Below, piece by piece: positions 332 through 19,131 of a stretch of 34,477 bases of DNA. The DNA lies in NCBI RefSeq assembly GCF_003334815.1, contig NZ_QOWO01000039.1; one strand, 5' to 3'. A model generated the notes under the pieces. That model was not told where the DNA came from. It saw only the letters and a list, made by a program, of their open reading frames with translations, and made no database searches. Each line of letters begins with the position of its first letter. Position 1 is the stretch's first letter. The position numbers were made by a program, and so were the translations under genes. This DNA comes from Escherichia coli (GTDB lineage Bacteria; Pseudomonadota; Gammaproteobacteria; Enterobacterales; Enterobacteriaceae).

Positions 332-1027
332 TTAGCAGTCATCAATAATCAAGTAAGTTGCATGTACTGGTCCATGCACACCAACAACTTTGATCAGTTC
401 TATATCTGCAGTAGAACTTGGGCCTCCAATCAGATTGATACAGGAAGGCAGTCGTTGTCCTTCCTGAGCCATTTCATGAAGTTTTTGCGCAAGCTGAGCC
501 ACTCGGGGGAGAATAGTGCTTTTGCGTAAAACAAATAATGATGCTTCAGGCAAAAGGCTTACTGAGCGCCCACGTTCTGGTGCGGAGAATAAGACAATGC
601 CTCCTGATTCTGTCAGCCCATACTCAGCGAAAACGACACCAGTTTTTGCCTTTTCAGCAAGATGGATATTTTCATCGCCCTTCTCCGGATCCCACAGAGC
701 AGCGTCCATTTCTTTTTGTAGCAATGGCGTAATCCCTGTATCGACCAGTCGTTGATCGTTGCTGATAATGACTGGCCCGGAACCGAACTTCCAACAGATG
801 TCTAAGGCTGTTGATGGTGCGTTCTCAGGCGACACCAGAACACACTCGGCAAGCATCACTTCCGAGGCAAATTTAATAAACGCCTCACAGCGTTGGTCTG
901 ATGTCAACTCTGTTAAACGTGTCGTAGCCAGCGTATTTACAGGCTCCGGCATTGCTTCGGGAATATGTCTTACTGGTCTGCCAAGCTTTCTGGCGATCGC
1001 AACGAGAAATTCCTCTCTGTTTTCCAT
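332..1027 (-). CDS. lutC: Lactate utilisation protein C (LutC/YkgG family)
   Basis: 231-aa ORF, last gene of a tightly spaced lutA-lutB-lutC arrangement; conserved C-terminal block ...AEYGLTESGG..LFS..ERGRS.SLLPE.SLF.LRKSTI.PR... resembles E. coli YkgG as recalled from memory. Confidence 0.85.
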   Translation of the reverse strand: MENREEFLVAIARKLGRPVRHIPEAMPEPVNTLATTRLTELTSDQRCEAFIKFASEVMLAECVLVSPENAPSTALDICWKFGSGPVIISNDQRLVDTGITPLLQKEMDAALWDPEKGDENIHLAEKAKTGVVFAEYGLTESGGIVLFSAPERGRSVSLLPEASLFVLRKSTILPRVAQLAQKLHEMAQEGQRLPSCINLIGGPSSTADIELIKVVGVHGPVHATYLIIDDC

Positions 1028-1030
1028 AAA

Positions 1031-2446
1031 TTACCCCTCCTTCTTATGTCGCTTGAACCAACTACGGAAGCTTTCTCCATCAGGTGATGGCAGGTCTCTG
1101 GCTTCAGTCCATTCTTTTATCGCTCCAACACTAATCGGCGTTTTTCCTTTCCTGATGAACAGACGGGCTGTTTTGGCCCCAGCAACCATACCTACCTTCC
1201 ACAACGCCGGATGGCTGTTTATGTAATTGAATGCTCTGGTTATACGGCGTTCCGTTAATGGTGTGATTTCAGACTCTGCCATAACCTGGCGATGTTTTTG
1301 TATTAGCGTTGCCAGAGGTATTTTTACAGGACATACCCCATTGCAGGCAGTGCACAATGAGCAGGCATAGGGTAAATCCTTAAAGTCTTCATATCCACCA
1401 AGCAATGGGGAAATAACCGCACCGATTGGCCCCGGGTAGATTGAACCATAACCATGCCCACCAATCTGACGATAAGCCGGGCAGGTATTAATGCAGGCAC
1501 CGCAGCGGATACATCGCAATACATCGCTGAATTCTGAGCCGAGAATCTCTGAACGCCCATTGTCAACAATAACGAGATGGAACTCTTCCGGACCATCAAC
1601 ATGTCCTTCTTCTCTGGGGCCTGTAAGCCAGGTGTTATAACCTGTCAGTCTCGCCCCGACAGCACTCCTTGCAAGCATGGTAATCAGAACATCCACCTCC
1701 TGGAATGTCGGAGCAATACGCTCCATACCCATAACAGCAATATGTGTTTTAGGTAATGTGGTGCACATCCGTGCGTTGCCTTCGTTTGTAACAAGGCAGA
1801 CTGACCCTGTTTCTGCAACGGCAAAGTTACACCCCGTTACGCCAACTTCAGCACTCAGAAAATCTTGTCTGATTTTCTCACGGATGAACAATGTCATTGC
1901 TTCTGGAGTTTCAGGCCCGTCATACCCCAGATGTTCATGTAAAACTCTGCGGATTTGATGGCGATCTTTATGTATTGCCGGCACAACCACATGCGATGGT
2001 GGCTCATGTGCTAGCTGAAGAATATATTCCCCAAGGTCCGTTTCAATCACGGGTATCCCGGCTTTCTGAAGAACGGCATTCATGCCAATTTCCTCAGTCA
2101 CCATTGATTTGGATTTAACAACCTTCCTGGCGTTTTTTTCTTTCGCCACCTTCAGTATGTAACTGGTTGCATCCTCTCTGGTACGGGCAAAATATACATG
2201 CCCGCCATTCGCAGTAACCTTTTCGGACAATTGATACAAATAAGCATCAAGATTTTCCAGAACATGCCGACGAATCTGTTCAGCTCGTGAACGCCATTCC
2301 TCCCAGTGTCCCAGTTCATCAACCATTTTCTGTCGATTAGTCCCTATGCGCTCCTGTGCGTTAGCCACAGCTTTTCGCATGATCGGGTCCTGAATCTGAA
2401 TACGGATACGCTCTTTAAACCTGATATCACTTGTTTTCAAAGACAT
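1031..2446 (-). CDS. lutB: Lactate utilisation protein B (LutB/YkgF family), 4Fe-4S iron-sulfur protein
   Basis: 471-aa ORF with ferredoxin-type cysteine motifs CIRCGACINTCP and CSLCTACNGVCP; 3-bp gap to lutC and 10-bp gap to lutA. Confidence 0.9.
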   Translation of the reverse strand: MSLKTSDIRFKERIRIQIQDPIMRKAVANAQERIGTNRQKMVDELGHWEEWRSRAEQIRRHVLENLDAYLYQLSEKVTANGGHVYFARTREDATSYILKVAKEKNARKVVKSKSMVTEEIGMNAVLQKAGIPVIETDLGEYILQLAHEPPSHVVVPAIHKDRHQIRRVLHEHLGYDGPETPEAMTLFIREKIRQDFLSAEVGVTGCNFAVAETGSVCLVTNEGNARMCTTLPKTHIAVMGMERIAPTFQEVDVLITMLARSAVGARLTGYNTWLTGPREEGHVDGPEEFHLVIVDNGRSEILGSEFSDVLRCIRCGACINTCPAYRQIGGHGYGSIYPGPIGAVISPLLGGYEDFKDLPYACSLCTACNGVCPVKIPLATLIQKHRQVMAESEITPLTERRITRAFNYINSHPALWKVGMVAGAKTARLFIRKGKTPISVGAIKEWTEARDLPSPDGESFRSWFKRHKKEG

Positions 2447-2456
2447 TCTGTTTACC

Positions 2457-3176
2457 TCATCTGTGCATCAGGACTTCAGCAATATGCATCACTTTTACAG
2501 GATGCCCTTCACGGTTAAGCCGACCGCCGATGTTTAGCAGGCAACTGGCGTCAGCCCCGATAAGAAAATCAGGTTTAACATCCATAATATGCCCGACTTT
2601 CTCTTTCACCATTTCACCAGAGATCTCCGCCATTTTTACAGAGAATGTGCCGCCAAACCCGCAGCACGTTTCCTGAGCGTGAAACGGCAGTAGCTCAAGC
2701 CCCTGTACATTCTCAAGTAGCAAAAGCGGCTCTCTGGTTACACCCAGCTTACGGGAAAGGCTGCAGGAGGGATGGTACACAGCGCGACCATTGAGTTTTG
2801 CCCCAACATCTGTGATGCCAAGATGATTTACTATAAATGATGTCAAATCATGCAGGCGTTCAGCCACTTTTTCAGCTCGTGCCGCCCACTCAGGTTCTTC
2901 ACTGAGATAGCGAGCGTAATTTTTTATCGTGTAAGTGCATGACCCGGCAGGAGATACTACCGGCCAGTCATTCTCTTCCAGCGAAGATATGAGATTTTTC
3001 ATGCCCGGGATGGCATCACGAACATAACCGCCATTTATCGCTGGCTGACCACAACATCCCTGCTTTTCGGGGAAATGGACATTGCAACCCAATTGCTCCA
3101 GTAACAGCACACTCTTTTGTGCCATCCGGGATTTAAACGCATCACCAATGCAGGTGACGAAAAAGTTAACATTCAC
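2457..3176 (-). CDS. lutA: Lactate utilisation protein A (LutA/YkgE family), cysteine-rich Fe-S oxidoreductase subunit
   Basis: 239-aa ORF; N-terminus MNVNFFVTCIGD... and CCG-type cysteine motifs (GCCGQP, CCGFGG) typical of YkgE/LutA; first of the three lut genes. Confidence 0.9.
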   Translation of the reverse strand: MNVNFFVTCIGDAFKSRMAQKSVLLLEQLGCNVHFPEKQGCCGQPAINGGYVRDAIPGMKNLISSLEENDWPVVSPAGSCTYTIKNYARYLSEEPEWAARAEKVAERLHDLTSFIVNHLGITDVGAKLNGRAVYHPSCSLSRKLGVTREPLLLLENVQGLELLPFHAQETCCGFGGTFSVKMAEISGEMVKEKVGHIMDVKPDFLIGADASCLLNIGGRLNREGHPVKVMHIAEVLMHR

Positions 3177-3225
3177 AGAAATTTCTCCTGTTGATTAATA
3201 TTCCACGTCCTTTTGTTGTTTTTTC

Positions 3226-4782
3226 TCAGGCCATGAACAGGTGGTAGACAAGGCCTACTTTCAGTCCAAGAATAACAATATAAGCAAAGCAGTACTTCAG
3301 TGTTCCTGACATGATTACGCTGCCCTGACCATCCATACGGGTGGCTGAAACAGCGATAGCAATACTCTGAGGAGAAATCATTTTGCCGCCTGTTGCGCCA
3401 GATGTATTTGCGGCAGCCAGCCAGAGCGGGTCCACATGCAATTTTTCAGCCGCAGTAGTCTGCAATTTACCAAACAGAATGTTGGAGTTTGTGTCACTAC
3501 CAGTAACAAATGTACCAAGAGCGCCGATAACCGGAGCAATGAAGAGGTAGGCCCCACCAGTCAGATCCACAAGGCTCTGTGCCAGAGTGCCAATCAACCC
3601 ACAGACATCCATTACCGTTGCCATGGCAACAATCGCAGAAATGGCAATAATGGAGTTTTTAAGTTGTTTTACCGTGCTGACAAATACGTTTAACAGGCAT
3701 GACAGGGATGCTTTCTGTATCAAGCCGCCAATAACACTGGCAATGATAATCAGAACACCGGGGGTTGCGATCCATTCAATTTTCATCGACAGATTGCTGC
3801 CGTTACTCAGAGAGAAGGTGAGTGACGAGGCAATCTGAGACACTGCACTTTTTATCGTCGGGAACAGTGGAGAGCAAAGCAGAATGAACAGAAAGATCAG
3901 AATGTAGATTGAGCACGCACGTAACAACGCCCCACGAGAGTATGAAAGTGCGCTGGCGCTATCTGCTGAACTCTCAATAAGAAATTCAGGTTCTGTTTTT
4001 TCTTTACGGTTTTTTGCCATAAAGACTATAACGATCAGACTGACAAGACTTCCTGCGAAAGCCGGGAGCTCTGCGCCAAGATTAACAGCCACCAGATACT
4101 GAGGTATCAATGTGCTAATACCGCACATCAGGGTAATTAACCCTACGCCTCGTATAGCTTTCATACCTCCACCGATAATCGTGACGATAACGAAGGGGAG
4201 CAGAATGTTGAACAGTGCCAGCTGAAGAATAATCGTCCCGCTGAGTGTGGTTACAGGTAAATTAACTTGTTCAGCAAGCACGGAGACAGGTATACCGACT
4301 GCCCCAAACGCTGTAGGGACTGTATTAGCAACCAGTGATGCAATCGCTGCTTTTAGTGGGTTAAAGCCCAGTGCAATGAGTATACCTATGGGGATTGCTA
4401 CCGCTGTACCGTATCCGGCGGCCGCCTCAAGAAATCCGCCAAAACACCATGAGATAAGAAGAACCTGGATGCGTTTATCGTCACTAACGCTCGCCAGAAC
4501 ATTTCTCAGAATATCCATGCTTTTTGTCGCATTCATCAGGTTATAGCTGTAAATGGCAGCAAGGATGACAATCACAATCGGCCACAAACCTTTGATTGCG
4601 CCGTATACCACAGCAGATCCCATATCCATAACTGGCGTCTGCCAGAAAACCCCTCCAAGGATTAGCGTGAGCAGGAGAGTGCTAAGCACAGAATAGTGTA
4701 TGGGCATTTTGACTTTCAGAATCAAAATGATCATCGCCAGAAGGGGGGTAAGTCCCAGTAAAAAAAGCAGGTAATCGTGCAT
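3226..4782 (-). CDS. lctP: L-lactate permease (LctP family), polytopic inner-membrane transporter
   Basis: 518-aa highly hydrophobic ORF with multiple predicted transmembrane segments, directly upstream of lutABC on the same strand (49-bp gap); RBS aaggaa before the ATG. Confidence 0.8.
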   Translation of the reverse strand: MHDYLLFLLGLTPLLAMIILILKVKMPIHYSVLSTLLLTLILGGVFWQTPVMDMGSAVVYGAIKGLWPIVIVILAAIYSYNLMNATKSMDILRNVLASVSDDKRIQVLLISWCFGGFLEAAAGYGTAVAIPIGILIALGFNPLKAAIASLVANTVPTAFGAVGIPVSVLAEQVNLPVTTLSGTIILQLALFNILLPFVIVTIIGGGMKAIRGVGLITLMCGISTLIPQYLVAVNLGAELPAFAGSLVSLIVIVFMAKNRKEKTEPEFLIESSADSASALSYSRGALLRACSIYILIFLFILLCSPLFPTIKSAVSQIASSLTFSLSNGSNLSMKIEWIATPGVLIIIASVIGGLIQKASLSCLLNVFVSTVKQLKNSIIAISAIVAMATVMDVCGLIGTLAQSLVDLTGGAYLFIAPVIGALGTFVTGSDTNSNILFGKLQTTAAEKLHVDPLWLAAANTSGATGGKMISPQSIAIAVSATRMDGQGSVIMSGTLKYCFAYIVILGLKVGLVYHLFMA

Positions 4783-5360: not shown

Positions 5361-5744
5361 ATGCGCGCTAAAGAAAGACTTCCCCGGAAACACTATTCCC
5401 CTGAATTCAAAATGGAACTGGTCAGGCTGGCTCTTGAAGAAGAAGGCAGTATTGCCGCACTGGCCCGGAAACATGACGTCAATGATAACCTGCTCTTTAA
5501 ATGGATAAGGCTCTGGCAGCGTGAAGGGCGGGTCTGTCGGCCCCGAAAAAACTCATCGTCGCTTCCTGCCCTGATACCCGTGCAGCTTCAGGCGGGCTCT
5601 TCTCTCCCAACCTTCGAACTACCATCCTGCTCTCCTCCCGCTACCTGCCACATAAAATGTCGGGGAGGAGAAATAACACTGACTCATCCCTCTGCTGAAC
5701 TCATGAGCACTGTCCTGCGCGAACTGATGCGGGGGCCTGTATGA
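5361..5744 (+). CDS. tnpA: IS66-family accessory protein OrfA (TnpA)
   Basis: 127-aa ORF, first in the IS66-type three-gene arrangement; its stop overlaps the orfB start (ATGA). Confidence 0.8.
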   Translation: MRAKERLPRKHYSPEFKMELVRLALEEEGSIAALARKHDVNDNLLFKWIRLWQREGRVCRPRKNSSSLPALIPVQLQAGSSLPTFELPSCSPPATCHIKCRGGEITLTHPSAELMSTVLRELMRGPV

Positions 5745-6088
5745 TAAATCTTCCCGCAGGCACAAAAATCTGGCTGGTTGCCGGTATCACCGATATGCGC
5801 AACGGCTTCAATGGCCTCGCCGCAAAGGTGCAGACCGCGCTGAAAGATGACCCGATGTCCGGCCACGTCTTCATCTTCCGGGGACGCAGCGGCAGTCAGG
5901 TAAAACTGCTCTGGTCCACCGGCGATGGTCTGTGCCTGCTGACAAAGCGACTAGAACGTGGTCGCTTCGCCTGGCCCTCAGCCCGCGATGGCAAAGTGTT
6001 CCTGACGCCGGCGCAACTGGCGATGCTGATGGAAGGTATCGACTGGCGACAGCCAAAGCGGTTACTGACATCCCTGACCATGTTGTAG
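5741..6088 (+). CDS. tnpB: IS66-family accessory protein OrfB (TnpB)
   Basis: 115-aa ORF translationally coupled to orfA; precedes the transposase gene. Confidence 0.8.
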   Translation: MINLPAGTKIWLVAGITDMRNGFNGLAAKVQTALKDDPMSGHVFIFRGRSGSQVKLLWSTGDGLCLLTKRLERGRFAWPSARDGKVFLTPAQLAMLMEGIDWRQPKRLLTSLTML

Positions 6089-6137
6089 CGCTCTTTATCC
6101 TGGTTGTCGCAGAATAAGCCTGGTAAAATACAGGCTT

Positions 6138-7672
6138 ATGAACGACACCTCTTCTGACGACATCCTTCTGCTGAAACAGCGCCTGGCCGAACAGGAAGCG
6201 TTGATCCACGCCCTGCAGGAAAAGCTGAGCAACCGGGAACGCGAAATAGACCATCTGCAGGCGCAACTGGATAAGCTGCGCCGGATGAACTTCGGCAGTC
6301 GTTCCGAAAAGGTATCCCGCGTATCGCGCAAATGGAAGCTGACCTGAACCTGCTGCAGCAGGAAAGCGATACGCTGACCGGCCGGGTGGATGACCCGGCA
6401 GTGCAGCGCCCGCTGCGTCAGACCCGCACCCGCAAACCGTTCCCTGAGTCACTCCCACGGGATGAGAAGCGGCTGCTGCCGACTGAGCCGTGTTGCCCGG
6501 AGTGCGGTGGTTCGCTGAGTTACCTGGGTGAGGATGCCGCCGAACAGCTGGAGCTGATGCGCAGCGCCTTCCGGGTTATCCGGACAGTCCGTGAAAAGCA
6601 TGCCTGCCGTCGGTGCGATCGCATCGTTCAGGCCCCGGCTCCTTCGCGCCCCATCGAACGGGGGATCGCCGGACCGGGGCTGCTGGCCCGAGTGCTGACC
6701 TCAAAGTATGCAGAGCACATACCGCTGTATCGCCAGTCGGAGATCTATGCCCGCCAGGGTGTAGTGTTGAGTCGTTCTGTACTGTCGGGCTGGGTGGATG
6801 CGTGTTGTCGTCTGCTGGCACCGCTGGATGAAGCCCTTCAGCACTATGTCCTGACCGACGGCAAACTCCATGCTGACGATATGCCTGTCCCGGTGCTGTT
6901 GCCGGGCAATAAGAAGACGAAGACCGGGCGCTTATGGACGTACGTTCGAGACGACCGCAACGCCGGATCAGCGCTGGCCCCCGCAGTGTGGTTCGCTTAC
7001 AGCCCGGACAGAAAAGGTATCCACCCTCAGACCCATCTTGCAGGCTTCAGTGGCGTACTGCAGGCTGATGCCTACGCCGGGTTCAACGAGCTCTACCGCG
7101 ACGGCCATATAAAGGAAGCCGCGTGCTGGGCCCATGCCCGCCGAAAAATCCACGATGTTCACGTCCGTACCCCGTCAGCCCTGACGGAGGAGGCGCTGAA
7201 ACGGATCGGCGAGCTGTATGCCATCGAGTCGGAGCTCAGAGGTAAAAGAGCAGAGGAACGGCAGGCAGTCCGGCACCAAAAAGTGCTGCCGCTGCTGGCG
7301 TCACTGGAGGGGTGGCTGCGGGAGAAACAGAAAACCCTCTCAAGGCACTCAGAACTGGCGAAGGCGTTCGGGTATGCGCTGAACCAGTGGCCGGCGCTGA
7401 CCCGCTATGCAGAAGATGGCTGGGTGGAGGTGGATAATAACATTGCCGAAAACGCCCTACGACTGGTCAGTCTGGGGAGAAAAAACTGGCTGTTCTTCGG
7501 CTCGGATCATGGTGGTGAGCGCGGTGCGTCACTGTACAGTCTTATCGGGACGTGCAAATTAAACGGCGTGGATCCGGAACGCTATCTGCATCATGTACTT
7601 GATGTCATCGCCGACTGGCCTGTGAACCGGGTGGGTGCTCTGCTCCCGTGGCGGGTTACTCTGCCTGCCTGA
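6138..7672 (+). pseudogene. tnpC: IS66-family transposase (TnpC) split by a frameshift near 6330-6347
   Basis: Track ORFs 6138..6347 (N-terminal coiled-coil/leucine-zipper-like segment) and 6332..7672 (zinc-finger-like CxxC...CxxC, catalytic core, C-terminal ...LLPWRVTLPA) overlap in different frames and together make one IS66-type transposase. Confidence 0.75.
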
Positions 7673-7713
7673 CCAGCTTCACTTCGTCAATACGGTTCTC
7701 ACTGCACGCTTAC

Positions 7714-8047
7714 GAAAAAATCCAGACTGGGCGAAGCGTTCAGCTATGTACTGAATCAGTGGGATGCCCTCTGTTATTACAGTGATGACGGTCTGGCGGA
7801 GGCGGATAATAATGCTGCGGAAAGAGCGCTTCGTGCAGTCTGTCTCGGAAAGAAAAACTTTATGTTCTTTGGCAGCGATCACGGCGGCGAGCGTGGAGCA
7901 CTGTTGTACGGGCTGATCGGCACCTGCCGTCTGAACGGTATCGATCCGGAAGCGTATCTGCGCCATATCCTGAGCGTACTGCCAGAATGGCCTTCCAACC
8001 GAGTTGATGAACTCCTGCCATGGAACGTAGTACTCACCAATAAATAA
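7714..8047 (+). pseudogene. Truncated IS66-family transposase, C-terminal ~110 codons only
   Basis: In-frame translation of 7714-8047 matches the C-terminal region of IS66 TnpC; there is no N-terminal part and no orfA/orfB upstream. Confidence 0.7.
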
Positions 8048-8270: not shown

Positions 8271-8554
8271 ACGCTAAAAATGATAATTTGTTCTACCTGA
8301 TTAATGCAACATGCCATAAGTTTACGGGAAAGGCTGACCACCTGATATTGTTGCAAAATACGAAAGTCGTCAAAATCGCGGTGGGGAGCTTGAGGCTGTA
8401 AGCTGAAAGCGTTTGTGAAAGCCCCGGGAGATTGTTCTATCAATCAACCAAGGGCTCTACTGTAATGCCTAGACAACATTATAGTAGCCCGCTGACGTCC
8501 TCCACGCCAGAGGGAGCTTGCTACGTACAGCTTGTCGTTACTCAGAAGTAATAA

Positions 8555-8625
8555 ATGTAAAAAAACCGACTGATGAGGTCGGTTTTCTTACTGTTCCGTT
8601 ACAGAGTTGGTGGCCCTGACTGGAG
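8555..8625. repeat. Repeat family copy B (partial: hairpin plus conserved downstream segment only)
   Basis: gtaaaaaaaccgactgatgaggtcggttttcttactgttccgttacagagttggtgg matches the terminator-proximal part of copies A and C; the small-ORF part is absent. Confidence 0.5.
8559..8589. terminator. Terminator-like hairpin in repeat copy B (A7-ccgac-tgatgag-gtcgg-TTTTCTT)
   Basis: Perfect 5-bp GC-rich stem with flanking A-run and T-rich run. Confidence 0.4.
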
Positions 8626-8745
8626 GAAATCTCTTTTCAGCTAACGTTCTTATAATAGTGTTCTGTTCATTTGATAACAACCACCCTTGTAATCCGCAGG
8701 TTAGCACTGTCTGGCGACACTTCTGTCGTGATGACGGTAACCAGA

Positions 8746-8892
8746 ACATGAGTCTTCCCGGTATAACAGGCATGGTGGGGCGGATTTGCAGAAACAACAG
8801 ATGTAAAAAAACCGACTGGTGAGGTCGGCTTTTTTACTGTTCCGCTACAGAGTTGGTTGCTCTGGGCGGGAAAAGACAGTCTGTATCTAACA
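8746..8892. repeat. Repeat family copy C (~145 bp) with a 24-codon ORF (8748-8822, MSLPGITGMVGRICRNNRCKKTDW) and a terminator-like hairpin
   Basis: Same unit as copy A; the small ORF shares its first 13 codons with copy A, then diverges through a 1-nt indel. Confidence 0.6.
8805..8835. terminator. Bidirectional intrinsic-terminator-like hairpin (A7-ccgac-tggtgag-gtcgg-c-T6) in repeat copy C
   Basis: Perfect stem with A-run and T-run on either side. Confidence 0.5.
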
Positions 8893-9802: not shown

Positions 9803-10465
9803 TTAAAATACTTCGGCTACAGGCATGCCTGCAATCTGCTCCCACTCCTTACGCTTTTCCTGAATCAGGCGAGGAAAGTCGACAGGGTAATCATATCCTC
9901 GACTTGCCATTGCGTGCATGGTGTTTGATGCTGTTTCTGGATGAGCACACCATGATGGAACAGGAACCATTGGCAGATTGATGTATTTCGTATGAATTTC
10001 CAGTTTTTTGTCGTCTGTTACAGTACGAGTGAAATTATGAATGTCAAAACCGATAACATCCATAATGTTGCCTGGATAGATACGGACATACAACATTGTG
10101 CCATTTTTAAGGTCAATGCCGAAATAAGCTCCCTGGGTTAAAGATAATCCCTCATACCCCTTCTCTGGAGAGTAGAAGCCTGACTCTTTTATTGTTTGTA
10201 CAACTTTTCTTATTTTTTCTCTCCTTGTTTTTGCACGTGAGTACATCCATATGCCTGGCGCAAGTAATAAGAACCAACTACCGAAAGTGACAACATAATC
10301 TTCGACCTTATTTCCGAAATAACGATCAGAACATAGCATTTCGGTAAAGCCTAATGCGCAGAACAGAAAAAAAGGTATTCCAAGAAAGAAATAAGCTTTT
10401 CTTAATACATAATAAAATAGCCACCAGGTTGGAAATCTGTCTGTTGTTTCTTTTTTAGCTTTCAT
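9803..10465 (-). CDS. excA: Inner-membrane protein at the ExcA (entry-exclusion) position of IncI-type transfer regions
   Basis: 220-aa ORF with two N-terminal hydrophobic segments, last gene of the minus-strand tra block directly after the DotA-like gene; assignment is positional. Confidence 0.45.
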
Positions 10466-10535
10466 ATAATGCCTCCCCTCGTACTATCTATTATTTTAAT
10501 GCCGATGGGGAGGTTGTGCAATATTTATATTGATA

Positions 10536-12704
10536 TTATCCTTTTATTCCGTCCTTGTCGTCACTTCCTTTTGTATTATCTTTAAGACGATCTGTTTTCA
10601 TTCCAGGAGTATGTCGGATATTGCGACTTCCTCCAATAAATATTTCTTTAACAGAATTTGCCATGCTGCCAAGCGTGTTGGCTCCATCACTTCCCCCTAG
10701 GAAGTTAATAACATGATCAGGTAGGTAGGCCTGAAGGGCAAATATGGCAGCTACAGTGGTTGTACAAATTCTGGCGTATATCAGCAAGAAACCAGCAAGA
10801 CTGAAAATACCGGTCAGCGAATTGAACTGTACGTTAACCAGGGCAGCGCCAAATAATGCATTCAGTATTGTGCCTACGGCGATGATGGCTACAGAAGCAA
10901 AGAAAAAACCAAAGACCATGATGGGCGGCCTTATCATACTATCAATTAAGTATATATAACCGTAGGCTGCCCGACTTCCTCTGTCTTCTGATGTCCCGAG
11001 ATGTGTTGCAGCCCACAGCGGCCCGGCGGTACATCCTATTAATACGCTGACTATCCAGTTCCCGATGCCTGTCATCCAGAAAATAAACGGAATGAATGGC
11101 AGGTAAATTGATAAGGAAAATCCAGCACAGAACATCAGGAACAAAAGAAAATAAACAGGTGGTGCAAGTGCTTCAAACAGCGCGGTAAGCATCGAAGCGG
11201 CACCTGTTAGTGAGTTAAAGAATTTTACAAGAATTGAATCTTTGCCACCGGCAACGACAACTCTGGCCGTTGTATATATAGTCCAGATTCCTTCTGCACT
11301 TACCATTGTTATATCTCCGATATTTTTCATTTTTATCAGAGGATTAATTTGAGCACTGGTTGTGCCTGTGCCACTTGTTTCCGTTGCAATCCTGTTAGTG
11401 AGACTAACAAGGGGGCCCATAATTTCAGACAAGGCAGATTTCGGATCTTGTGCATTTGCCATGCGTTGTTCACTGGATGATACTACTGTGCCCAGCGGTG
11501 GCGTATAGGAGGAATTCTGCAGTTGCGTCCTATAGGCACTCATGACCGCACTGAATAAGTCAGTATCACCAACTTCTCCCAGTGATGACATTGAAGTTAC
11601 AGCTGGAGCTCTGTCAGCCAGCTCTGCCAGACGCTGGTTAGCAGTGGCAAAGGTCTGATACCATGCGCCAAGCGTTACCCACCCGTAGGTTGTGAGATAA
11701 GATTTAAGAGCCTCTTTTCTGGATTGCTCTCCGTTATCAGTGGGTAGCGATTTTTGCACAGCACGTTCGTATTCGTCGGCTGCTTTCTGAATTCGTGTCT
11801 CGATATCCGGCAGTGTTCCGTTGCCAGAATTTCTTTTTTCCAGAAATGTTGTCACAAACTCACTGGCAGCGTTGTCCATGTCGCTAATCATATTATCCAT
11901 GGCTGCACGTTGTGCTGAGATAACACCGCTGTACTCGTTTTTACTGAAGGGATTAAAGAATTTTCCAATCGTCGACTGATCTGTTGTTCCGTTTCCTTCT
12001 ACTGACAGGCTGGCTGTACCACAGATACCGCTGCCATTGGATACCGTGACAGTGTAATTACCACTGGCGGTTTTAGCTGATTCTGTCATCAGTGAAGTCG
12101 AGGATTTGGCGGTCTGATTAAAATCATTTAGTCCTGCGTTAACCGCATACTTACATAGTTCCATTTCAAAAATGCCACGCGCAGCTGTTCGTGTGGATGC
12201 CTGAACTGGCTGTACAGTCATTGAATAACCATTTGCGATATTATCAGCGGCAACTTGCACCATCACATTGGCGGACCCAACCCCCATTATCGATGCGCCC
12301 CATAACATAATGAGCTGAGCGAGACTCCAGCCATTTCCGGTAGGAACGATCATCAGAAAGCCTGCGACGAAACTCAGTATGCCGACAATATCGCGCCCGA
12401 CGCTGAATACCTGTCCCTGATGCCCCGAACGCACAACATGGCGGATACTAATGAAGATACACCAGACGATAGCAAGTACGGCAATGATATTGTTGAACAC
12501 CCAGAACATGCTTCCGATCAGGGTGGGGTCGCTGGTTGACAGTGGATTGGTGACCACATCACCGAATATCGTGACCAGCGCCTGGCGGGACAGATCGTCA
12601 GGATTGGTGGCGGCAGACACAATATCCTGATAGGTCACTGAAGCCATTGCCGGCAGTGAGGATATAGCAAGGCCTGCACAGAGTGCGCGAAGTAAAATTT
12701 TCAC
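10536..12704 (-). CDS. traY: DotA/TraY-like polytopic integral membrane protein of a type IVB secretion/conjugation system
   Basis: Large ORF with signal-peptide-like N-terminus and many hydrophobic segments. Start set at the GTG at 12704 (ggag-N6-GTG giving MKILLRALCAGLAISSLPAMA); the track ORF runs up to 12773 without an RBS. Confidence 0.6.
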   Translation of the reverse strand: MKILLRALCAGLAISSLPAMASVTYQDIVSAATNPDDLSRQALVTIFGDVVTNPLSTSDPTLIGSMFWVFNNIIAVLAIVWCIFISIRHVVRSGHQGQVFSVGRDIVGILSFVAGFLMIVPTGNGWSLAQLIMLWGASIMGVGSANVMVQVAADNIANGYSMTVQPVQASTRTAARGIFEMELCKYAVNAGLNDFNQTAKSSTSLMTESAKTASGNYTVTVSNGSGICGTASLSVEGNGTTDQSTIGKFFNPFSKNEYSGVISAQRAAMDNMISDMDNAASEFVTTFLEKRNSGNGTLPDIETRIQKAADEYERAVQKSLPTDNGEQSRKEALKSYLTTYGWVTLGAWYQTFATANQRLAELADRAPAVTSMSSLGEVGDTDLFSAVMSAYRTQLQNSSYTPPLGTVVSSSEQRMANAQDPKSALSEIMGPLVSLTNRIATETSGTGTTSAQINPLIKMKNIGDITMVSAEGIWTIYTTARVVVAGGKDSILVKFFNSLTGAASMLTALFEALAPPVYFLLFLMFCAGFSLSIYLPFIPFIFWMTGIGNWIVSVLIGCTAGPLWAATHLGTSEDRGSRAAYGYIYLIDSMIRPPIMVFGFFFASVAIIAVGTILNALFGAALVNVQFNSLTGIFSLAGFLLIYARICTTTVAAIFALQAYLPDHVINFLGGSDGANTLGSMANSVKEIFIGGSRNIRHTPGMKTDRLKDNTKGSDDKDGIKG

Positions 12705-12800
12705 AGTAACTCCGGAATAGAATTGCGTATGGGCAAAGGCCACACAGGATTTAATTAAGGGGGATGGCGACATGCCAGTGGTACTGGCATCTGGACGTGA

Positions 12801-13385
12801 TCAGTATTGTTTACTGGTTACGGCAATTAATGTGGCATTGCGCCAGCCATTGCGGTAGTTCAGAAAATCACGGAAAGTCCCCTGCTCGGGTTCGCTGACT
12901 TTTCGTTCATGCAACTGCCAGAGGCGGTATGTAACTATCAGAGCTCTGGAAGCACAAAGAGCGACGCCTGACAGAATCAACACAAGAGTGCTGATGGCGC
13001 GTACCTGTGTCATCAAAGGTAATGAGGAGGCGGCAAAGAGCATACCGCTGAGGAATAAAGCGATGGCCAGCAGACTCCAGCAGCATAACCGCCATACTGT
13101 TCTGCGCCGGCGGAAACGACGATCCAGGTCGTCTACTGACATATGGCTGGCCTGCAGAGCTTCTTCCCACGAGAGGCAGAGTTGCGCCTTTTTATTATTT
13201 ACCTGACGAAATTTTTCCAGCCTGCTTTTTTGTTGCTTCAGCATATGCTGTACAGAATTCGTTATCAGGCGAGTCTCCATCAGAGGAACAAAAATGTTAA
13301 TAATCCTCCGGGTGGCTATGCGGGTTATGGATAGTGATTTTTTGACGTTTTTCGTCTGGTCTGAATTTTCCGGTAACTTATTCAT
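12801..13385 (-). CDS. Membrane protein at the TraX position of the tra block
   Basis: 194-aa ORF with C-terminal hydrophobic helices; co-directional and tightly packed with neighbours. Confidence 0.5.
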   Translation of the reverse strand: MNKLPENSDQTKNVKKSLSITRIATRRIINIFVPLMETRLITNSVQHMLKQQKSRLEKFRQVNNKKAQLCLSWEEALQASHMSVDDLDRRFRRRRTVWRLCCWSLLAIALFLSGMLFAASSLPLMTQVRAISTLVLILSGVALCASRALIVTYRLWQLHERKVSEPEQGTFRDFLNYRNGWRNATLIAVTSKQY

Positions 13386-13413
13386 TGTTTCAGTCCTGTT
13401 CTGACGTCAGCTT

Positions 13414-14616
13414 TCAACGTGCGTTTGCCTGATTGATTGTTTTCTCAAGGCTACCGAGTTGTTTTTCATAATACTGGCGGGCAGTCAGAGCCAGTTGCTG
13501 GCCAGAGATAACATTACCCTGGCGGATCTGTTCTTTCAGATCGTTCAGCTGCCAGTTCATTTGCGCAGTGATTCTTACCAGTTCACGGAGCAGGTTATCC
13601 CCCTGCATTTCCTGTAAATCCACCAGGTATGCTGTGTTGGCGTAGCGCCGGCCAGCCTCAAAAGCTTCAAACTCACGGGTACTCATATATCCCCGTGCTT
13701 TTGCTTCTGGTGAAGCCACTTGGTCGAAGTAAGCGGCCGCTGAGTCTGACTGCAGTGTTTCAGCCAGTGCTTTACGTGTGCTTTCATTAGGCGTGCTGTC
13801 AGCAATCAACGTCAGTTGGGGATTCGACGCAGAATCAATGATGCCGTTGTATTCGTTCTGGAGTCCGACGTAGGTTCGCCCACTCTGGGTATTCACTTCT
13901 CCTTTACCCAGAGCACGACCGGCAGAGGGGCGGGAAGTGTTTTTCATGTAAGCAGTCGCTGCATCTATTTGCTTCTGATCCCATGTCAGTGCCGCAGGTG
14001 TGTCCGCTGTACCTGCGCCGTGGTAAATCGAGCGTACCTGACTGTCTCCACCTGGTATTTCGCCCACAGAAGGACAAACGGCGGTTCCTCCAAAACGTGC
14101 ATATTCTGCTTCTGTACAGTAACTGGCGTGTATGGCCGCGCCATCATAAGCTTCCCGCACGGGAGAGTTTGCTGCGCTGGCCAGACGGTCGCGGATGCTA
14201 CGGTTGCTCACACCGCCACCTTTACTGAGTTTTGAGGCTGCGGATGCTGAGGCACTTTTGCTTACTGTTGCAATCCCTGATGCGGATTCACTGCAGATGG
14301 AGTCTGGCACGGTGAAGCTTTTCCGTGCCTCCTCGAGGCGCTGAGTTTCATTACTGAAAATCATCTGCTGACGTGTCGCCTGTCCGTTCTGGGCAATGAC
14401 ACTTGCCAGCTTTTCAGAGTTCTGATTGATAGCGGTACCCGTGGCTGTCTGGGTACTCAGTATGTCACTCAGCACACCTTTGATGGCCTCCATTCTGGGG
14501 ACGACCTGCTGTTCAACGGGACGGCTGGCGACGACGGTGACTGAATAAGCATGAGCCTGGTATGCCGTTCCATTCAGGATAGCTATAAGGGCTGCGAGTA
14601 ATGTTTTTCTTTGCAT
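13414..14616 (-). CDS. Secreted/periplasmic protein at the TraW position
   Basis: 400-aa ORF with N-terminal signal peptide MQRKTLLAALIAILNGTAYQAHA; overlaps the upstream gene by 34 nt. Confidence 0.5.
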   Translation of the reverse strand: MQRKTLLAALIAILNGTAYQAHAYSVTVVASRPVEQQVVPRMEAIKGVLSDILSTQTATGTAINQNSEKLASVIAQNGQATRQQMIFSNETQRLEEARKSFTVPDSICSESASGIATVSKSASASAASKLSKGGGVSNRSIRDRLASAANSPVREAYDGAAIHASYCTEAEYARFGGTAVCPSVGEIPGGDSQVRSIYHGAGTADTPAALTWDQKQIDAATAYMKNTSRPSAGRALGKGEVNTQSGRTYVGLQNEYNGIIDSASNPQLTLIADSTPNESTRKALAETLQSDSAAAYFDQVASPEAKARGYMSTREFEAFEAGRRYANTAYLVDLQEMQGDNLLRELVRITAQMNWQLNDLKEQIRQGNVISGQQLALTARQYYEKQLGSLEKTINQANAR

Positions 14617-15197
14617 TTTATTGTCTCCTGCTCGGGGTGGAGCACAAGGTCAGGAAGGCTGTCGTATTTTCTGTCTTCAGGTAGTGGGGCCAGTGGGAAA
14701 CACTGATATCGCCTGGTGATATAACCTTTCCTGTTCCGGTTATCGATGATGCTGAAAGAACGACGTCTGACGCGCCGTAAGGTGGAAGGGTCAGTATCCA
14801 TAACAGGCCAGTCACCGGCACTCAGTGCCGGCGTTCCGGGAACAGATGGCCATAACCAGGTGTCATCGGACATCAGCGAAGTCAGCGGTGAAGGGAGTAT
14901 CCACTGGATGACATGCTGAACGTCGAATGGTGCTTCATCCGGGACAGAAACCTGCCATATTGCCGTTGTTATCAGCTCATCTGTGCTGGACGGCAACAAC
15001 AGCCGCATGCCTGTAACCTTTCCCTGTGTTCTGGCATCCGAGGCGTATATCACTCTGGGATTGGGGGCCGGATGTAACCTGAAGACACGTGACGGCAGAG
15101 TGAATGAGAAACTGTCACCTTTTACCTCAAGTTTTTTAAGAAATACCTGCCCTCTGGCAGGTCTCCGGCAGCGTGGGGTGATATGAATTGTACACAT
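14583..15197 (-). CDS. Protein at the TraV position
   Basis: 204-aa ORF; its start overlaps the traU stop by 1 nt. Confidence 0.45.
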   Translation of the reverse strand: MCTIHITPRCRRPARGQVFLKKLEVKGDSFSFTLPSRVFRLHPAPNPRVIYASDARTQGKVTGMRLLLPSSTDELITTAIWQVSVPDEAPFDVQHVIQWILPSPLTSLMSDDTWLWPSVPGTPALSAGDWPVMDTDPSTLRRVRRRSFSIIDNRNRKGYITRRYQCFPLAPLPEDRKYDSLPDLVLHPEQETIKCKEKHYSQPL

Positions 15198-18100
15198 CAG
15201 AGATTGTATCCCTGTTTTCGGATGAGCTCCGAGGCCAGTTCTTCAATAACATTGTCACTGTTATGTTGGCCCGCCCGGTGCTCAATTAATGACGTTGCAG
15301 AACCTCTGGGGAAGTTTTCGGCCAGAATCTTACGTGCCCGAACTGAACCTAACTTATTTGTCAGTGTTTTACGCAGGGCACTGTCTTTTGGCGATGAGTT
15401 CAGCGCCCATAGCTCCAGTGGACCGACGGTAAATTTGAGTATTCTCGCAAGCGTGCCACTTTTTACCCTGAATACTCCCAGAACAGGAACACCACTACCA
15501 TCTGGTGCCGGGCCTTCCGGCATTTTCAGGAAGCGTTTCAGCATAAATTCAGGAACGTTGAAGTTATCCCTCAGTACGGGGATATCTTCGGGTTTGTAGC
15601 GCAGTAACCAGAGAGTATTTGCTGACTTAAGAACGCTTTCCGGGTAGTCCCTCAGATACTGCGTACTCAGAACCGTGCGGATAGCAAACTTGCGTTGCTC
15701 ACGCTCCTGGGTATCCAGATTTTCCCAGATGAAGTCAATGCCCCGGGCGTTATGCAGTTCATCATAAACTTTTGTCTTAACCTCCTGATCAAGTTGGTTA
15801 ATACGTTTAAGAGCGATTTCATGGTATTCCCGTGGAAGCTGCTTTAACACTTCATCCCTGTATTGTGGCAGGGTGAAGTCACCACCGGCGATCTGACCTG
15901 CAAGCAGGTACATGATGCCGGTTTTAAGCCTGCCTGCAGGCGTTTTGTCACCGGCAACATTATTCAGATCGACAGCGATGACCCGGGTTTCCGGGTTGAT
16001 CATAAACCGGGTATACCCGGATATCATGGGGTAGTCGTTATGTCCCTGCTCGAGCGCGCGGCGGATGTAGTCCAGCAGAAGTTCGTTTGAACCATCACGC
16101 TGAACAGTACCGAAAACATCCCTGAGACTGGTATGGCCCAGCATCGAGGACACTTCGGGAAGCTGGGGCATTGCCTGATAATGTGCCCGCTGAGCCGCCA
16201 TGATATACCCGGCATTGTGGAGCATATCCCGGACTTCGAACCAGGTTGATCTGGCCCACCAGGTTGCATCATGTTTTTCATACAGTCCCGAGTCCTGCAG
16301 TGCTGAATCCACCAGTTCTTCCGTTGAGGCGCGATAAAGTCGCGGATTATTTTCACCGTACTCTTTAAAAGCCAGCTCGATAAGCTGGTTGATAATTTGT
16401 CGGGTGTCTCCGGGGTTACAGGGTTGACCGGTACCGGTATCGACACAGAGAGCACACAGCACCGATGACATGAAATTCTTTTCCGGCGTAATAGGCTTTT
16501 TAGCGCCGTACATCACGTCAAAAAGGTTACGGGTGTATTCCGGATCATTGCTCAGAATAATACCGACAGCTTCGTCTTTTCTTTCCGGAGGAAGACTGTC
16601 GCGAATAAGCTGAACCAGTCCCTGAGCACTGTATCCCTTATCGATATAGGCAATGAAGGGCAGGTTTTTCTGAGCAGATGATATCTGTATTTCCGACAAT
16701 GTATTAATCAGAACTGATTTACCCAGTCCCGGATCGCCTGGTGCGAGTTCTGTATGTTTATTTTGTTGGGATGACGCCAGACCAACCTCAATTGCGGAAC
16801 CGTCTTCTGTATGTAACATAAGATTCCCTTTACCTCGCCAGACAGAGCCTGCCCTGTTAAGCGGGAAAAGCGAGATGGCATGTGACAACGGGGGATACAG
16901 GGGAACCGGGCCGGAGCCTCCGGATGCCGCGAGAATGGTATTCACCCAGGCGCGTCGGGGATCGCCAAATGTTGTCGTGGTGCCACATACGCCCCAGCCT
17001 TCAATGGCTGATTTCAGAATGGCCTGGTTTCGTGTGCATATTTCACGTGTTTTTCCCCACGTGGAGGCCATGATGGTCATTATGCAGACAGGTTCTTTTT
17101 CATCCGTTGCCGCCAGGGCCATAACGGATTCATACATTGGACGAACGGCAGAAATGAAGCTGCTGTAAGTCAGAAGCGTTTTCTTCAGATTAAGAGCCTT
17201 CATCCCGCCGGGCATCAGATCCATTCTGATGCGCCAGGGGACTGCGCGGGGGACGGCACGGACCAGTTCGTTAAACGTCTGCAGATTTTGCGGAGGTAAA
17301 GTAATCGATACCATTCCGTGCCAGAGTCCGCCCGCCTGAACCAGGTTGCCCTGTGTGGTCACCTGAGTGTTGAATAACTGCAAATGCAATGAAGGAGCAT
17401 GTAGTACGGATTCATCGTCAGTCCAGCGATATCCCGCTGGCTGGGCATCTTCAGGCAGGTGGGGTTGCCAGTTACGCGGTGTGCTGTGCCGTTCTGTCTG
17501 ACGACGTATTTCACGCCCGACCTCGTGTATATCCAGTAGCCGGAGAATCAGGCCATCAGATGAATGTCTCAGTGCCTGTTCCACATTATCAAGAAAAGCT
17601 TCGTGGCGGATTTTCAGTGCAGATAAGGTCCACTGCCAGGGGGATTGGGCAAAGCGTGCTTTCGGTACCCGTTCAGCCAGTCTTCTGACAAGCTCATCAT
17701 GGGCGGTGCGATCGCTGTTGCTGATAAGGTCGGGTCCACTCCAGATCGCCAGCCAGCAACGCTCCCGGACCAGCCATGGGGACAGTGTTGTGACTTTCTC
17801 ATCGACCACATCCTGTAACTGGATACCTGTATTAGCCAGTGAGCGCTTTTGTGGGGCGACCATGTCTTCGATTTCTTCTTTCCCCATGTCAGGATCACGC
17901 TCAAAAACGAAGCTGATTTTATGACCGCTGTTTTTATATGCCGTATTCAGGCTGTCACTCATGCTGGTGATCAGCGATTCCAGTGAACCTGGGCCAGTCT
18001 GGTCGGATGCTTCATCCATTTCCCTGAAAGCACCGCTGACTTCAAAGACAGAGAGATATTCTCCACGCTTTGTGGCTGCAATATAGGGCGAATTCAGCCA

Positions 18101-18241
18101 TGGGCGACGTTCACGATCCTGTCTGTCCAGACCAATTACAGTACGTAAATCGCAATACTCAACAAAACTGCTTGCGACAGAGAAACGGGATAGCGTGTTC
18201 AGACAGTCTTCGATAGTGAAGATTAAACGGTTTATGTTCAT
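15197..18241 (-). CDS. traU: DotO/IcmB-like type IVB secretion ATPase (TraU-type)
   Basis: ~1014-aa protein with Walker A-like GDPGLGKS. Start set at the ATG at 18241 (ggag upstream); the track ORF extends to a TTG at 18334. Confidence 0.7.
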   Translation of the reverse strand: MNINRLIFTIEDCLNTLSRFSVASSFVEYCDLRTVIGLDRQDRERRPWLNSPYIAATKRGEYLSVFEVSGAFREMDEASDQTGPGSLESLITSMSDSLNTAYKNSGHKISFVFERDPDMGKEEIEDMVAPQKRSLANTGIQLQDVVDEKVTTLSPWLVRERCWLAIWSGPDLISNSDRTAHDELVRRLAERVPKARFAQSPWQWTLSALKIRHEAFLDNVEQALRHSSDGLILRLLDIHEVGREIRRQTERHSTPRNWQPHLPEDAQPAGYRWTDDESVLHAPSLHLQLFNTQVTTQGNLVQAGGLWHGMVSITLPPQNLQTFNELVRAVPRAVPWRIRMDLMPGGMKALNLKKTLLTYSSFISAVRPMYESVMALAATDEKEPVCIMTIMASTWGKTREICTRNQAILKSAIEGWGVCGTTTTFGDPRRAWVNTILAASGGSGPVPLYPPLSHAISLFPLNRAGSVWRGKGNLMLHTEDGSAIEVGLASSQQNKHTELAPGDPGLGKSVLINTLSEIQISSAQKNLPFIAYIDKGYSAQGLVQLIRDSLPPERKDEAVGIILSNDPEYTRNLFDVMYGAKKPITPEKNFMSSVLCALCVDTGTGQPCNPGDTRQIINQLIELAFKEYGENNPRLYRASTEELVDSALQDSGLYEKHDATWWARSTWFEVRDMLHNAGYIMAAQRAHYQAMPQLPEVSSMLGHTSLRDVFGTVQRDGSNELLLDYIRRALEQGHNDYPMISGYTRFMINPETRVIAVDLNNVAGDKTPAGRLKTGIMYLLAGQIAGGDFTLPQYRDEVLKQLPREYHEIALKRINQLDQEVKTKVYDELHNARGIDFIWENLDTQEREQRKFAIRTVLSTQYLRDYPESVLKSANTLWLLRYKPEDIPVLRDNFNVPEFMLKRFLKMPEGPAPDGSGVPVLGVFRVKSGTLARILKFTVGPLELWALNSSPKDSALRKTLTNKLGSVRARKILAENFPRGSATSLIEHRAGQHNSDNVIEELASELIRKQGYNL

Positions 18242-18330
18242 AGGTGAGGGAACTCCGGACTTACAGGAGGGAGGTTTGTGCAGTTTGATTTTTTTAATGC
18301 CACCCCGCGCTGGAGTGGCATGAAGAAAAA

Positions 18331-19131
18331 TCAATCAACGTATTCTTTTTTGATGAATGAATCTGGTGTCAGAATCAGGGCAATCCCGTTCATTTTTTCA
18401 CGCAGGGGCGAACGACCGGAAGGTGGATAGCGACGAAAAACGTCAGCGAAATCGGCCGGGCGGAAACTGCGGAATTTATCCTCAACCGCCAGTCTGTTTT
18501 GCATCAGTGCAGAGAGCGCTTCCCGTCCCCGCCGGACCCGGAACTTATCATTACTGAAAACTTCCTGTAATGAACGACGGTTAAGGGCCACGACCGTGGA
18601 TGGATGAAGGTCGGGTAGCCACACCATAACGCCCTGTGCTGCGGCATAACCATTCAGTGAATGCCAGGCGTGGCAGAAAGCACATAAGCTGTAAGGCGGG
18701 CCGTCTTCATGAAACAGTTCCTGCTCTTTCTCTGACAACGACTCTGTACTGGTGATTTCAGCTTTCTGTACATGGCGGAGTGAAAGACGTCTGGCAGACA
18801 GACGGGCCTGCTCAAGCGCCCGTTCAGCGGCTTTTACTGCCGTGTTGTACTTTTCCTTTTCGCCGGTTGCGACTGGTTCACCACGCTTTTTTAACTTATC
18901 CAGATGTTCTGTGGCCTTATTAAGACGAACTCGTGTGTCACTGATTGTGTCGGTAAGCTGTCTGAGTGGCCATGAGTCATCCAGTCTGAAACGGTGCCTG
19001 ACGTTTTGCCGGCAGCAGATACATCGACCGGGCGTTGTTAATTCCGGTTCCGGTAACAGTGGCTCCTGTGTATGAACCACATCAATTTCTGGAAAGGGAT
19101 ACAACCACAAGTCTTTAATGCTGTGTTGCAT
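18331..19131 (-). CDS. Protein at the TraT position, with Cys clusters (CICCRQ..., CAFCHAWH)
   Basis: 266-aa ORF in the operon; possible zinc-binding cysteines. Confidence 0.45.
   Translation of the reverse strand: MQHSIKDLWLYPFPEIDVVHTQEPLLPEPELTTPGRCICCRQNVRHRFRLDDSWPLRQLTDTISDTRVRLNKATEHLDKLKKRGEPVATGEKEKYNTAVKAAERALEQARLSARRLSLRHVQKAEITSTESLSEKEQELFHEDGPPYSLCAFCHAWHSLNGYAAAQGVMVWLPDLHPSTVVALNRRSLQEVFSNDKFRVRRGREALSALMQNRLAVEDKFRSFRPADFADVFRRYPPSGRSPLREKMNGIALILTPDSFIKKEYVD

Follow-up and report, generated by a model that had tools for sequence, protein, structure and literature searches.

The start codons of traY and traU in an IncI1-type transfer region: the shorter, already annotated reading frames are very probably the genes

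Where do two genes of an IncI1-type transfer operon begin, when each of them lies within an open reading frame that could be read from further upstream? The window, i.e., the whole 34,477-nt stretch of Escherichia coli DNA that was analysed, represents the transfer region of an IncI1/Iγ-type conjugative plasmid, positions 10400-18500 of which match the Escherichia fergusonii plasmid NZ_CP057464.1 at 100% identity, and the RefSeq annotation of this identical sequence gives the minus-strand order traT-traU-traV-traW-traX-traY-excA. The two genes that a previous, sequence-only reading had called "DotA-like" and "DotO-like" are traY and traU, respectively, both on the minus strand. The longest traY frame (10536..12773, 745 aa) opens with an ATG, and GTG 12704-12702 follows in the same frame 69 nt, or 23 codons, downstream; the longest traU frame (15197..18334, 1045 aa) opens with a TTG (18334-18332), which overlaps the traT stop TGA (18333-18331), just as the sequence-only reading had described, and ATG 18241 lies in frame 31 codons 3' of it.

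That reading proposed to "reassign" both starts to the inner codons, and the choice itself seems very probably right: judging from sequence comparison, traY would be translated from GTG 12704 and traU from ATG 18241, the extensions being intergenic spacers. It is a reassignment, however, only relative to a longest-ORF rule and not relative to public annotation, as both the RefSeq/PGAP record (NZ_CP057464.1) and GenBank LC567099.1, whose annotation is independent of it, already place traY at 10536..12704 and traU at 15197..18241, and equivalent starts are used in every other annotated record compared. There is thus nothing new in these boundaries, which amount to ordinary gene-boundary housekeeping; an annotated gene being shorter than its own longest ORF is a common situation (6 of 30 annotated genes in the window) and nothing special to traY or traU.

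Table 1. Coordinates of the genes and sequence elements considered at the traY and traU starts.
Feature	Position	Strand	Basis or remark
traY CDS, DotA/TraY family, 722 aa, GTG start	10536..12704	-	RefSeq WP_061348430.1; TIGR04346
Predicted TraY Sec signal peptide MKILLRALCAGLAISSLPAMA, codons 1-21	12642..12704	-	Basic residues, hydrophobic core, AxA site
traY Shine-Dalgarno GGAG	12710..12713	-	5 nt upstream of GTG; anti-SD duplex -6.1 kcal/mol
Putatively non-coding 23-codon traY "extension", part of the traX-traY spacer	12705..12773	-	Not conserved in six relatives
8-bp hairpin AUGCCAGU-ACC-ACUGGCAU	12772..12790	-	MFE and centroid fold of spacer
traX	12801..13385	-	RefSeq annotation
traW (lipoprotein)	13414..14616	-	RefSeq annotation
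traV	14583..15197	-	RefSeq annotation
traU CDS, 1014 aa, VirB4/DotO-type ATPase, ATG start	15197..18241	-	RefSeq WP_001024780.1
GGAG upstream of traU	18253..18256	-	11 nt to ATG; anti-SD duplex -6.1 kcal/mol
Putatively non-coding 31-codon traU "extension" (traT-traU spacer and overlapping TTG)	18242..18334	-	Not conserved in relatives
Imperfect hairpin, traT-traU spacer	18285..18334	-	Core stem 18319-18312 / 18306-18299; conserved
traT	18331..19131	-	RefSeq annotation; stop TGA 18333-18331 overlaps TTG 18334

For traY, the ribosome-binding site claimed for GTG 12704 is indeed there, and so is the claimed lack of one at the longer start: no GGAG, AGGA or GAGG is found in the 22 nt upstream of ATG 12773, and the anti-SD duplex energies of the three candidates are -6.1 (GTG 12704), -1.6 (ATG 12773) and -0.4 kcal/mol (GTG 12743). 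Six divergent relatives (67-88% nucleotide identity over the first 150 coding nt) all retain the block tccGGAGtta(c/t)(c/t)GTGAAAA, and the remainder of the spacer is not kept: ungapped identity upstream of the start is just 12-22 of 54 positions, the traX-traY spacers measure 96, 98, 74, 72, 72, 57 and 57 nt and so differ by amounts not divisible by three, and an in-frame upstream ATG, GTG or TTG preceding a stop was sought in these six relatives and found in none. Downstream of the start, substitutions are distributed over the codon positions as 6/0/12, 9/4/23, 9/4/26, 10/6/31 and 11/6/32, and 39-44 of the first 50 TraY residues are identical.

The resulting protein would begin with what a signal peptide should look like. 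Read from the GTG, TraY is (M)KILLRALCAGLAISSLPAMA followed by SVTY, before which cleavage is predicted; two basic residues precede an 11-residue hydrophobic core, and A-M-A occupies residues 19-21, this last site being kept as AMA, AQA or ARA, again ending at residue 21, in four divergent relatives. The call was made from these simple n/h/c features rather than by a trained predictor, and the "clean signal peptide" of the sequence-only reading stands at that predicted level: on such features, a DotA-like signal peptide at the very N-terminus would be obtained only with the GTG 12704 start. The 722-aa precursor initiated there would then lose its first 21 residues between AMA and S, as in Legionella DotA, whose leader of 19 residues is cleaved (PMC6761968) and whose structure paper also describes a signal peptide (PMC12501162); the 726-aa TraY of pCTX-M3 is likewise predicted to carry one (PMC6112013). 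As the signal peptide would be cleaved off either way, N-terminal proteomics is unable to discriminate between the two traY starts.

Family assignment fits with this. With TIGR04346 (DotA_TraY), whose curated cutoff is 100, the protein scores 571.9 bits, and model positions 1-656 of 656 cover long-ORF residues 61-693, whereas the equivalog for DotA proper, NF033886, reaches 153.4 bits and stays below its cutoff of 500, which makes the protein a TraY-type paralogue of conjugative plasmids and not a Legionella-type DotA. The Legionella pneumophila DotA chain (PDB 9ngy) shares the cleaved N-terminal leader, the two TM helices following it and the C-terminal hydrophobic helices, although it is 1048 aa long and has a larger periplasmic insert; local alignments span long-ORF residues 39-188 and 472-696, residue 12 of the chain falling on long-ORF residue 39, i.e., residue 16 of the short form, which places the predicted TraY signal peptide opposite the DotA leader region. 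Compared with TraY of the IncI1 plasmids R64/ColIb-P9, the short form shows no difference: its 722 aa match WP_061348430.1 exactly, and its gene occupies the same operon position beside excA. The excA/traY 3' part is one of several known exclusion-specificity variants.

The traU start was compared in nine DNA relatives and 20 protein homologues. The ggag reported upstream of ATG 18241 is present, and its distance from the ATG, a point absent from the sequence-only reading, exceeds the usual optimum; the anti-SD duplex is -6.1 kcal/mol for ATG 18241 versus -1.2 kcal/mol for TTG 18334. A GGAG 11-12 nt before the ATG is seen in six of the nine relatives (L010-L014, L022) and is absent or weaker in the other three (L023-L025), and ATG-AAY-ATH-AAC-CG, encoding MNINR, is kept in all nine. 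The upstream frame is shut by a stop 2-51 codons away in the relatives, and a start homologous to TTG 18334 was found in none of the nine; exceptionally, L024 has an upstream ATG, which is not homologous, and the IncK2/Z plasmids have a GTG 4 codons before the traU start. In the annotated set, traT and traU are separated by 89, 97, 294, 175, 86 and 80 nt, and the spacer of L025 measures 29 nt; substitutions 3' of the start favour the third codon position (e.g., 9/7/36). The 20 TraU homologues, with lengths of 1012-1026 aa and identities as low as 34%, all start no more than a few residues from the aligned Met, none of them bearing an N-terminal extension, and the 1016-aa pCTX-M3 TraU aligns with ColIb-P9 TraU from residue 1 (PMC6112013). 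The alignment of N-termini put forward as a check of both starts has thus come out for the inner codons, since, among the relatives compared, homologous extensions are confined to the near-identical IncI1 group.

Initiation at ATG 18241 would yield a cytoplasmic 1014-aa ATPase of the VirB4/DotO type. In sequence it is identical to the TraU of IncI1 plasmids, the MPF_I prototype ATPase, which RefSeq lists as "IncI1-type conjugal transfer protein TraU" (WP_001024780.1); its gene, too, lies between traT and traV, and a Walker A motif, GDPGLGKS, is seen in its translation. Searches with TraU gave no Pfam match even at E<=10, none in NCBIfam and none among PDB sequences, so its DotO likeness rests on the literature, in which the pCTX-M3 homologue is related to DotO at 28% identity and R64 TraU is described as a distant VirB4 homologue (PMC6112013), and on source names, homologues at 44-45% identity bearing the JGI name "IcmB".

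Both upstream stretches, 12705-12773 and 18242-18334, would on this evidence be spacers of a polycistronic tra operon in which the frame happens to have stayed open within the IncI1 lineage; in each of them, a hairpin is predicted to cover the upstream candidate start. In the traX-traY spacer, the 3' arm of the 8-bp hairpin takes in A and U, the first two bases of ATG 12773; this hairpin is local to IncI1 and is not conserved by relatives. TTG 18334 is base-paired at the foot of the larger hairpin in the traT-traU spacer, the 99-nt fold of which has an energy of -29 kcal/mol (z -3.6).

The main alternative is that the genes do correspond to the longest ORFs, with TraY starting at ATG 12773 and TraU at TTG 18334, the latter coupled to traT via TTGA. 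Both frames are open in this plasmid, and the 745-aa TraY is frequent in databases, making up 69 of the 127 TraY-like proteins retrieved (UniRef "TraY n=43" included) and persisting in older and automated annotations; the original R64 annotation is said to have given 745 aa as well. The exact 722-aa TraY, for its part, is encoded on 297 contigs, and the exact 1014-aa TraU on at least 1000, versus two contigs for the 1045-aa form, which has been deposited twice. Start/stop overlaps are a common arrangement for translational coupling, so the TTGA overlap fits this alternative, and the use of that overlap as an argument against TTG 18334 does not hold, being typical of coupled genes; TTG 18334 is disfavoured, instead, because the extension is not conserved and the hairpin covers the TTG. 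Neither upstream codon has a Shine-Dalgarno sequence, both are paired in hairpins, and in all divergent relatives the extension is missing, lies out of frame or is interrupted by a stop. A 44-residue TraY leader would, moreover, bury the basic n-region behind 23 added residues, and the substitutions that distinguish IncI1 variants land in or beside the loop of the 18285-18334 hairpin, four of them clustering in the loop, where they would change two residues over four codons of the supposed traU extension. That the longest ORFs are the genes is, all this considered, extremely improbable.

A milder version, restricted to IncI1, would have the short forms as the main products and a minor long TraY (or TraU) isoform with a lineage-specific role. 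The traY extension is intact within IncI1 and identical in 71 of 72 long-form proteins, and low-level initiation at ATG 12773 is compatible with the data; with the extension near-invariant and 745-aa entries so many, close relatives by themselves do not exclude the long form. At 98-99.8% identity, those relatives show no substitutions anywhere within 12705-12773 and hence are incapable of discriminating the traY starts, and the invariance is accounted for by junction DNA that is 98-100% identical throughout, adjacent traX codons included. As ATG 12773 lacks a Shine-Dalgarno sequence and is sequestered in a hairpin, and as relatives function without the extension, such dual initiation seems very unlikely, and initiation at GTG 12704 and ATG 18241 remains the reading we prefer.

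The spacers hold one further observation: a long conserved hairpin between traT and traU, with a run of U on its 5' side and a run of A on its 3' side. Salmonella Gaminara and IncK2/Z plasmids retain it, with three pairs changed on both sides, and on neither strand does it have the shape of a terminator. Tentatively, and with rather more doubt than conviction, it could serve the tra operon as a functional RNA element that adjusts how much VirB4-type ATPase is made in I-type conjugation systems; possible roles would be RNase III or other processing, an mRNA-stability site, or the uncoupling of traU translation from that of traT. A CUCC...GGAG pairing occluding the traU Shine-Dalgarno was considered and dropped, as it comprises only 4 bp and is inconsistently conserved. 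No sigma-70-like promoter was found by scanning both spacers, nor any Rfam family in either, and the terminator scan of the spacers returned only a weak hairpin at 12746-12726 (overall, 11 sites against an expectation of 5.7 +/- 2.6, an unconvincing excess).

The importance of all this is admittedly small: the current RefSeq boundaries of traY and traU are confirmed, and the 745-aa TraY and 1045-aa TraU entries that still circulate in databases are, very probably, longest-ORF artefacts. The practical use lies in TraY signal-peptide and topology models, expression constructs and exclusion-specificity chimeras, where a construct begun at ATG 12773 would place 23 spurious residues ahead of the TraY signal peptide.

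Window positions 10400-18500 matched 1385 records in a megablast search against plasmids, nearly all of them Escherichia/Salmonella conjugative MPF_I plasmids, with a 100% match in the E. fergusonii plasmid NZ_CP057464.1, typed IncI-gamma/K1, whose annotation therefore makes the "DotA-like" gene of the sequence-only reading traY and its "DotO-like" gene traU; beyond traT, the remaining tra operon genes follow as far as traE. Only 165 positions differ between the window and this plasmid, starting at the left end, and the otherwise identical sequence differs across the first ~200 nt. The lactate-utilisation cluster and the IS66 tnpB left of the tra region, together with a high-GC stretch without listed genes at 6.1-8.9 kb (GC 0.57-0.60 at 6001-8000), are an accessory insertion. 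The sok and AgrB-type matches point to at least one type I toxin-antitoxin locus between excA and the IS66 element. In many IncI1 plasmids the alignment begins only near query position 1097 (rows of 86% coverage; window 10400-11497); excA and the 3' part of traY are therefore a replaceable cassette, which fits the published excA/traY entry-exclusion variants of the R64 and R621a types (PMC8004404); GC is low around this part (0.397 for 10001-11000).

Features of the window, with gene coordinates from excA to traT carried over from the NZ_CP057464.1 annotation
Feature	Position	Strand	Basis
lactate-utilisation cluster (lutABC-like + L-lactate permease)	332-4782		
IS66 tnpB	5741-6088		
sok antitoxin RNA	8384-8525	+	Rfam gathering-level match, 67.5 bits
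AgrB-type antisense RNA	8557-8644	-	Rfam gathering-level match, 50.7 bits
AgrB-type antisense RNA	8803-8890	-	Rfam gathering-level match, 59.4 bits
excA	9803-10465	-	NZ_CP057464.1 annotation
traY	10536-12704	-	NZ_CP057464.1 annotation
traX	12801-13385	-	NZ_CP057464.1 annotation
traW	13414-14616	-	NZ_CP057464.1 annotation
traV	14583-15197	-	NZ_CP057464.1 annotation
traU	15197-18241	-	NZ_CP057464.1 annotation
traT	18331-19131	-	NZ_CP057464.1 annotation

In the ORF list, the longest traY frame (10536..12773, 745 aa) opens on an ATG (12773-12771) lying 69 nt upstream of the in-frame GTG 12704-12702, and the longest traU frame (15197..18334, 1045 aa) on a TTG (18334-18332), 93 nt upstream of the in-frame ATG 18241-18239. 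The sequence-only reading had preferred the inner start of each gene on account of a GGAG, and both motifs are indeed there, at 12713-12710 (5 nt gap to the GTG) and 18256-18253 (11 nt ahead of the ATG), with an anti-Shine-Dalgarno duplex energy of -6.1 kcal/mol at either start, against -1.6 at ATG 12773, -0.4 at GTG 12743 and -1.2 kcal/mol at TTG 18334 (neighbouring tra genes, -4.9 to -11.2 kcal/mol); the 23 extra residues of the longest traY frame thus come without a ribosome binding site, as had been claimed. TTG 18334 does share bases with the traT stop TGA (18333-18331), as also claimed, and this was rejected as an argument against it, overlap with a preceding stop being no evidence against a start. 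An annotated gene shorter than its longest ORF is routine here (6 of 30 window genes).

A sensitive blastn search with the traX-traY junction gave 532 records of 60-80% identity, and six traY relatives were taken: one Salmonella Gaminara plasmid, three IncK2/Z plasmids, and one Enterobacter and one Citrobacter plasmid (both rep_cluster_1444). The block tccGGAGtta(c/t)(c/t)-GTG-AAA-A is shared by all six, and in none does an in-frame ATG, GTG or TTG follow the upstream stop before that GTG is reached. Their traX-traY spacers measure 98, 74, 72, 72, 57 and 57 nt (96 nt in the window). Over the first 150 coding nt, most substitutions are at the third codon position (counts for positions 1/2/3: 6/0/12, 9/4/23, 9/4/26, 10/6/31 and 11/6/32), with 39-44 of 50 residues identical, and ungapped identity upstream (-16 to -69) was just 12-22 of 54; the traY coding signal therefore starts at GTG 12704. 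The Salmonella Gaminara plasmid (NZ_CP030289.1, locus L010, 6249-6500) carries an extra 83-aa hypothetical gene between traW and traX, absent from the window.

From this GTG, TraY would begin with the predicted signal peptide that had been proposed for it, MKILLRALCAGLAISSLPAMA|SVTY (bar, predicted cleavage), the small-x-small site at residues 19-21 being conserved with a variable x (...VPAMA|SV, ...VPAQA|FV, ...TPARA|GV in relatives); a start at ATG 12773 would put 23 additional residues ahead of the basic n-region. Residue 12 of Legionella DotA (9ngy) aligns to long-ORF residue 39, i.e., short-form residue 16, and the two N-termini therefore coincide only with the GTG start. A passage of PMC6761968 citing Nagai and Roy 2001 describes removal of a 19-residue DotA leader, the DotA structure paper draws a signal peptide (PMC12501162), and one was predicted for the 726-aa IncM homologue TraY (PMC6112013). 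N-terminal proteomics would be unable to tell the two traY starts apart, because the leader is removed. TraY passes the DotA/TraY subfamily model (571.9 bits, cutoff 100), and stays below the DotA equivalog cutoff (153 bits, cutoff 500), a result to be expected of a TraY from a plasmid.

For traU, nine DNA relatives were compared (five plasmid records, and four contigs with proteins 87, 78, 70 and 69% identical). Each opens with ATG AAY ATH AAC CG (MNINR) and none has a start homologous to TTG 18334; the upstream frame closes within 2-51 codons, the only in-frame upstream starts being an IncK2/Z GTG at 4 codons and a non-homologous ATG at 15 codons in one contig (L024). Among the annotated relatives, the traT-traU spacer measures 97, 294, 175, 86 and 80 nt; in another contig (L025) it has 29 nt. 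Third-position bias begins at ATG 18241 (e.g., 9/7/36). Six of the nine retain the GGAG at a distance of 11-12 nt, and the other three have lost it or carry a weaker version; the spacing is long, yet consistently placed. Among 53 TraU protein homologues, those of full length (1012-1026 aa) align over 96-97% of the 1045-aa query, and all 20 aligned, down to 34% identity, begin a few residues or less from the Met of ATG 18241, with the N-terminal extension in none. TraU is identical to the RefSeq protein and has a Walker A motif; it matched no Pfam or NCBIfam model and no PDB sequence, and its relation to DotO/VirB4 rests on the literature (PMC6112013) and the source names of homologues.

Alignment with homologues thus upholds the short starts, the longer extension being conserved in none (6 traY, 9 traU DNA and 20 TraU protein relatives), and GTG 12704 and ATG 18241 are supported, by sequence comparison, as the probable starts. 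The proposed "reassignments" were right as to position, but both starts are already known: equivalent positions are used in RefSeq/PGAP and in the independently annotated GenBank LC567099.1, and homologous ones in every other record fetched. By exact-sequence look-up, 297 contigs encode the 722-aa TraY, with no match to the 745-aa form of the window's allele in the collection searched; for TraU, at least 1000 contigs encode the 1014-aa form vs. 2 for the 1045-aa form. Homology search found 745-aa TraY entries for IncI1 alleles to be frequent among the older gene calls of NCBI, UniRef, ENA and Logan, so that two traditions of TraY annotation exist side by side. The traX start also differs between two records of the same sequence (RefSeq, 194 aa; LC567099.1, 147 aa).

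The would-be traU extension, i.e., the traT-traU spacer, holds a long imperfect hairpin (minus strand, 18285-18334), whose core GCCACUCC / GGGGUGGC (18319-18299) is lengthened to 18334-18285 by a 5' U-run paired with a 3' A-run, TTG 18334 being base-paired at its foot. The 99-nt fold has -29 kcal/mol (z -3.6), and homologous segments gave z -3.8 (Salmonella Gaminara plasmid) and z -3.2 (IncK2/Z plasmid). The four substitutions that distinguish two IncI1 variants fall within the loop or beside it; across five aligned sequences, 90.5% of cells are paired vs. 40-53% with slid partners, and three pairs are changed on both sides (Salmonella Gaminara, IncK2/Z plasmids), covariation and conservation that are suggestive only in so small a sample. 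The hairpin is absent in more distant relatives, matches no Rfam family and is not terminator-like on either strand; mRNA processing, stability or translational uncoupling would be candidate roles. Directly after the traX stop, an 8-bp hairpin AUGCCAGU-ACC-ACUGGCAU (12772-12790, minus strand), seen in the IncI1 lineage only and not in divergent relatives, is predicted to sequester ATG 12773, the A and U of which sit in its 3' arm.

All seven lineages compared (the window and the six relatives) retain the GTG start codon of traY (12702-12704) despite 12-33% nucleotide divergence immediately downstream, and selection for inefficient initiation may be the reason.
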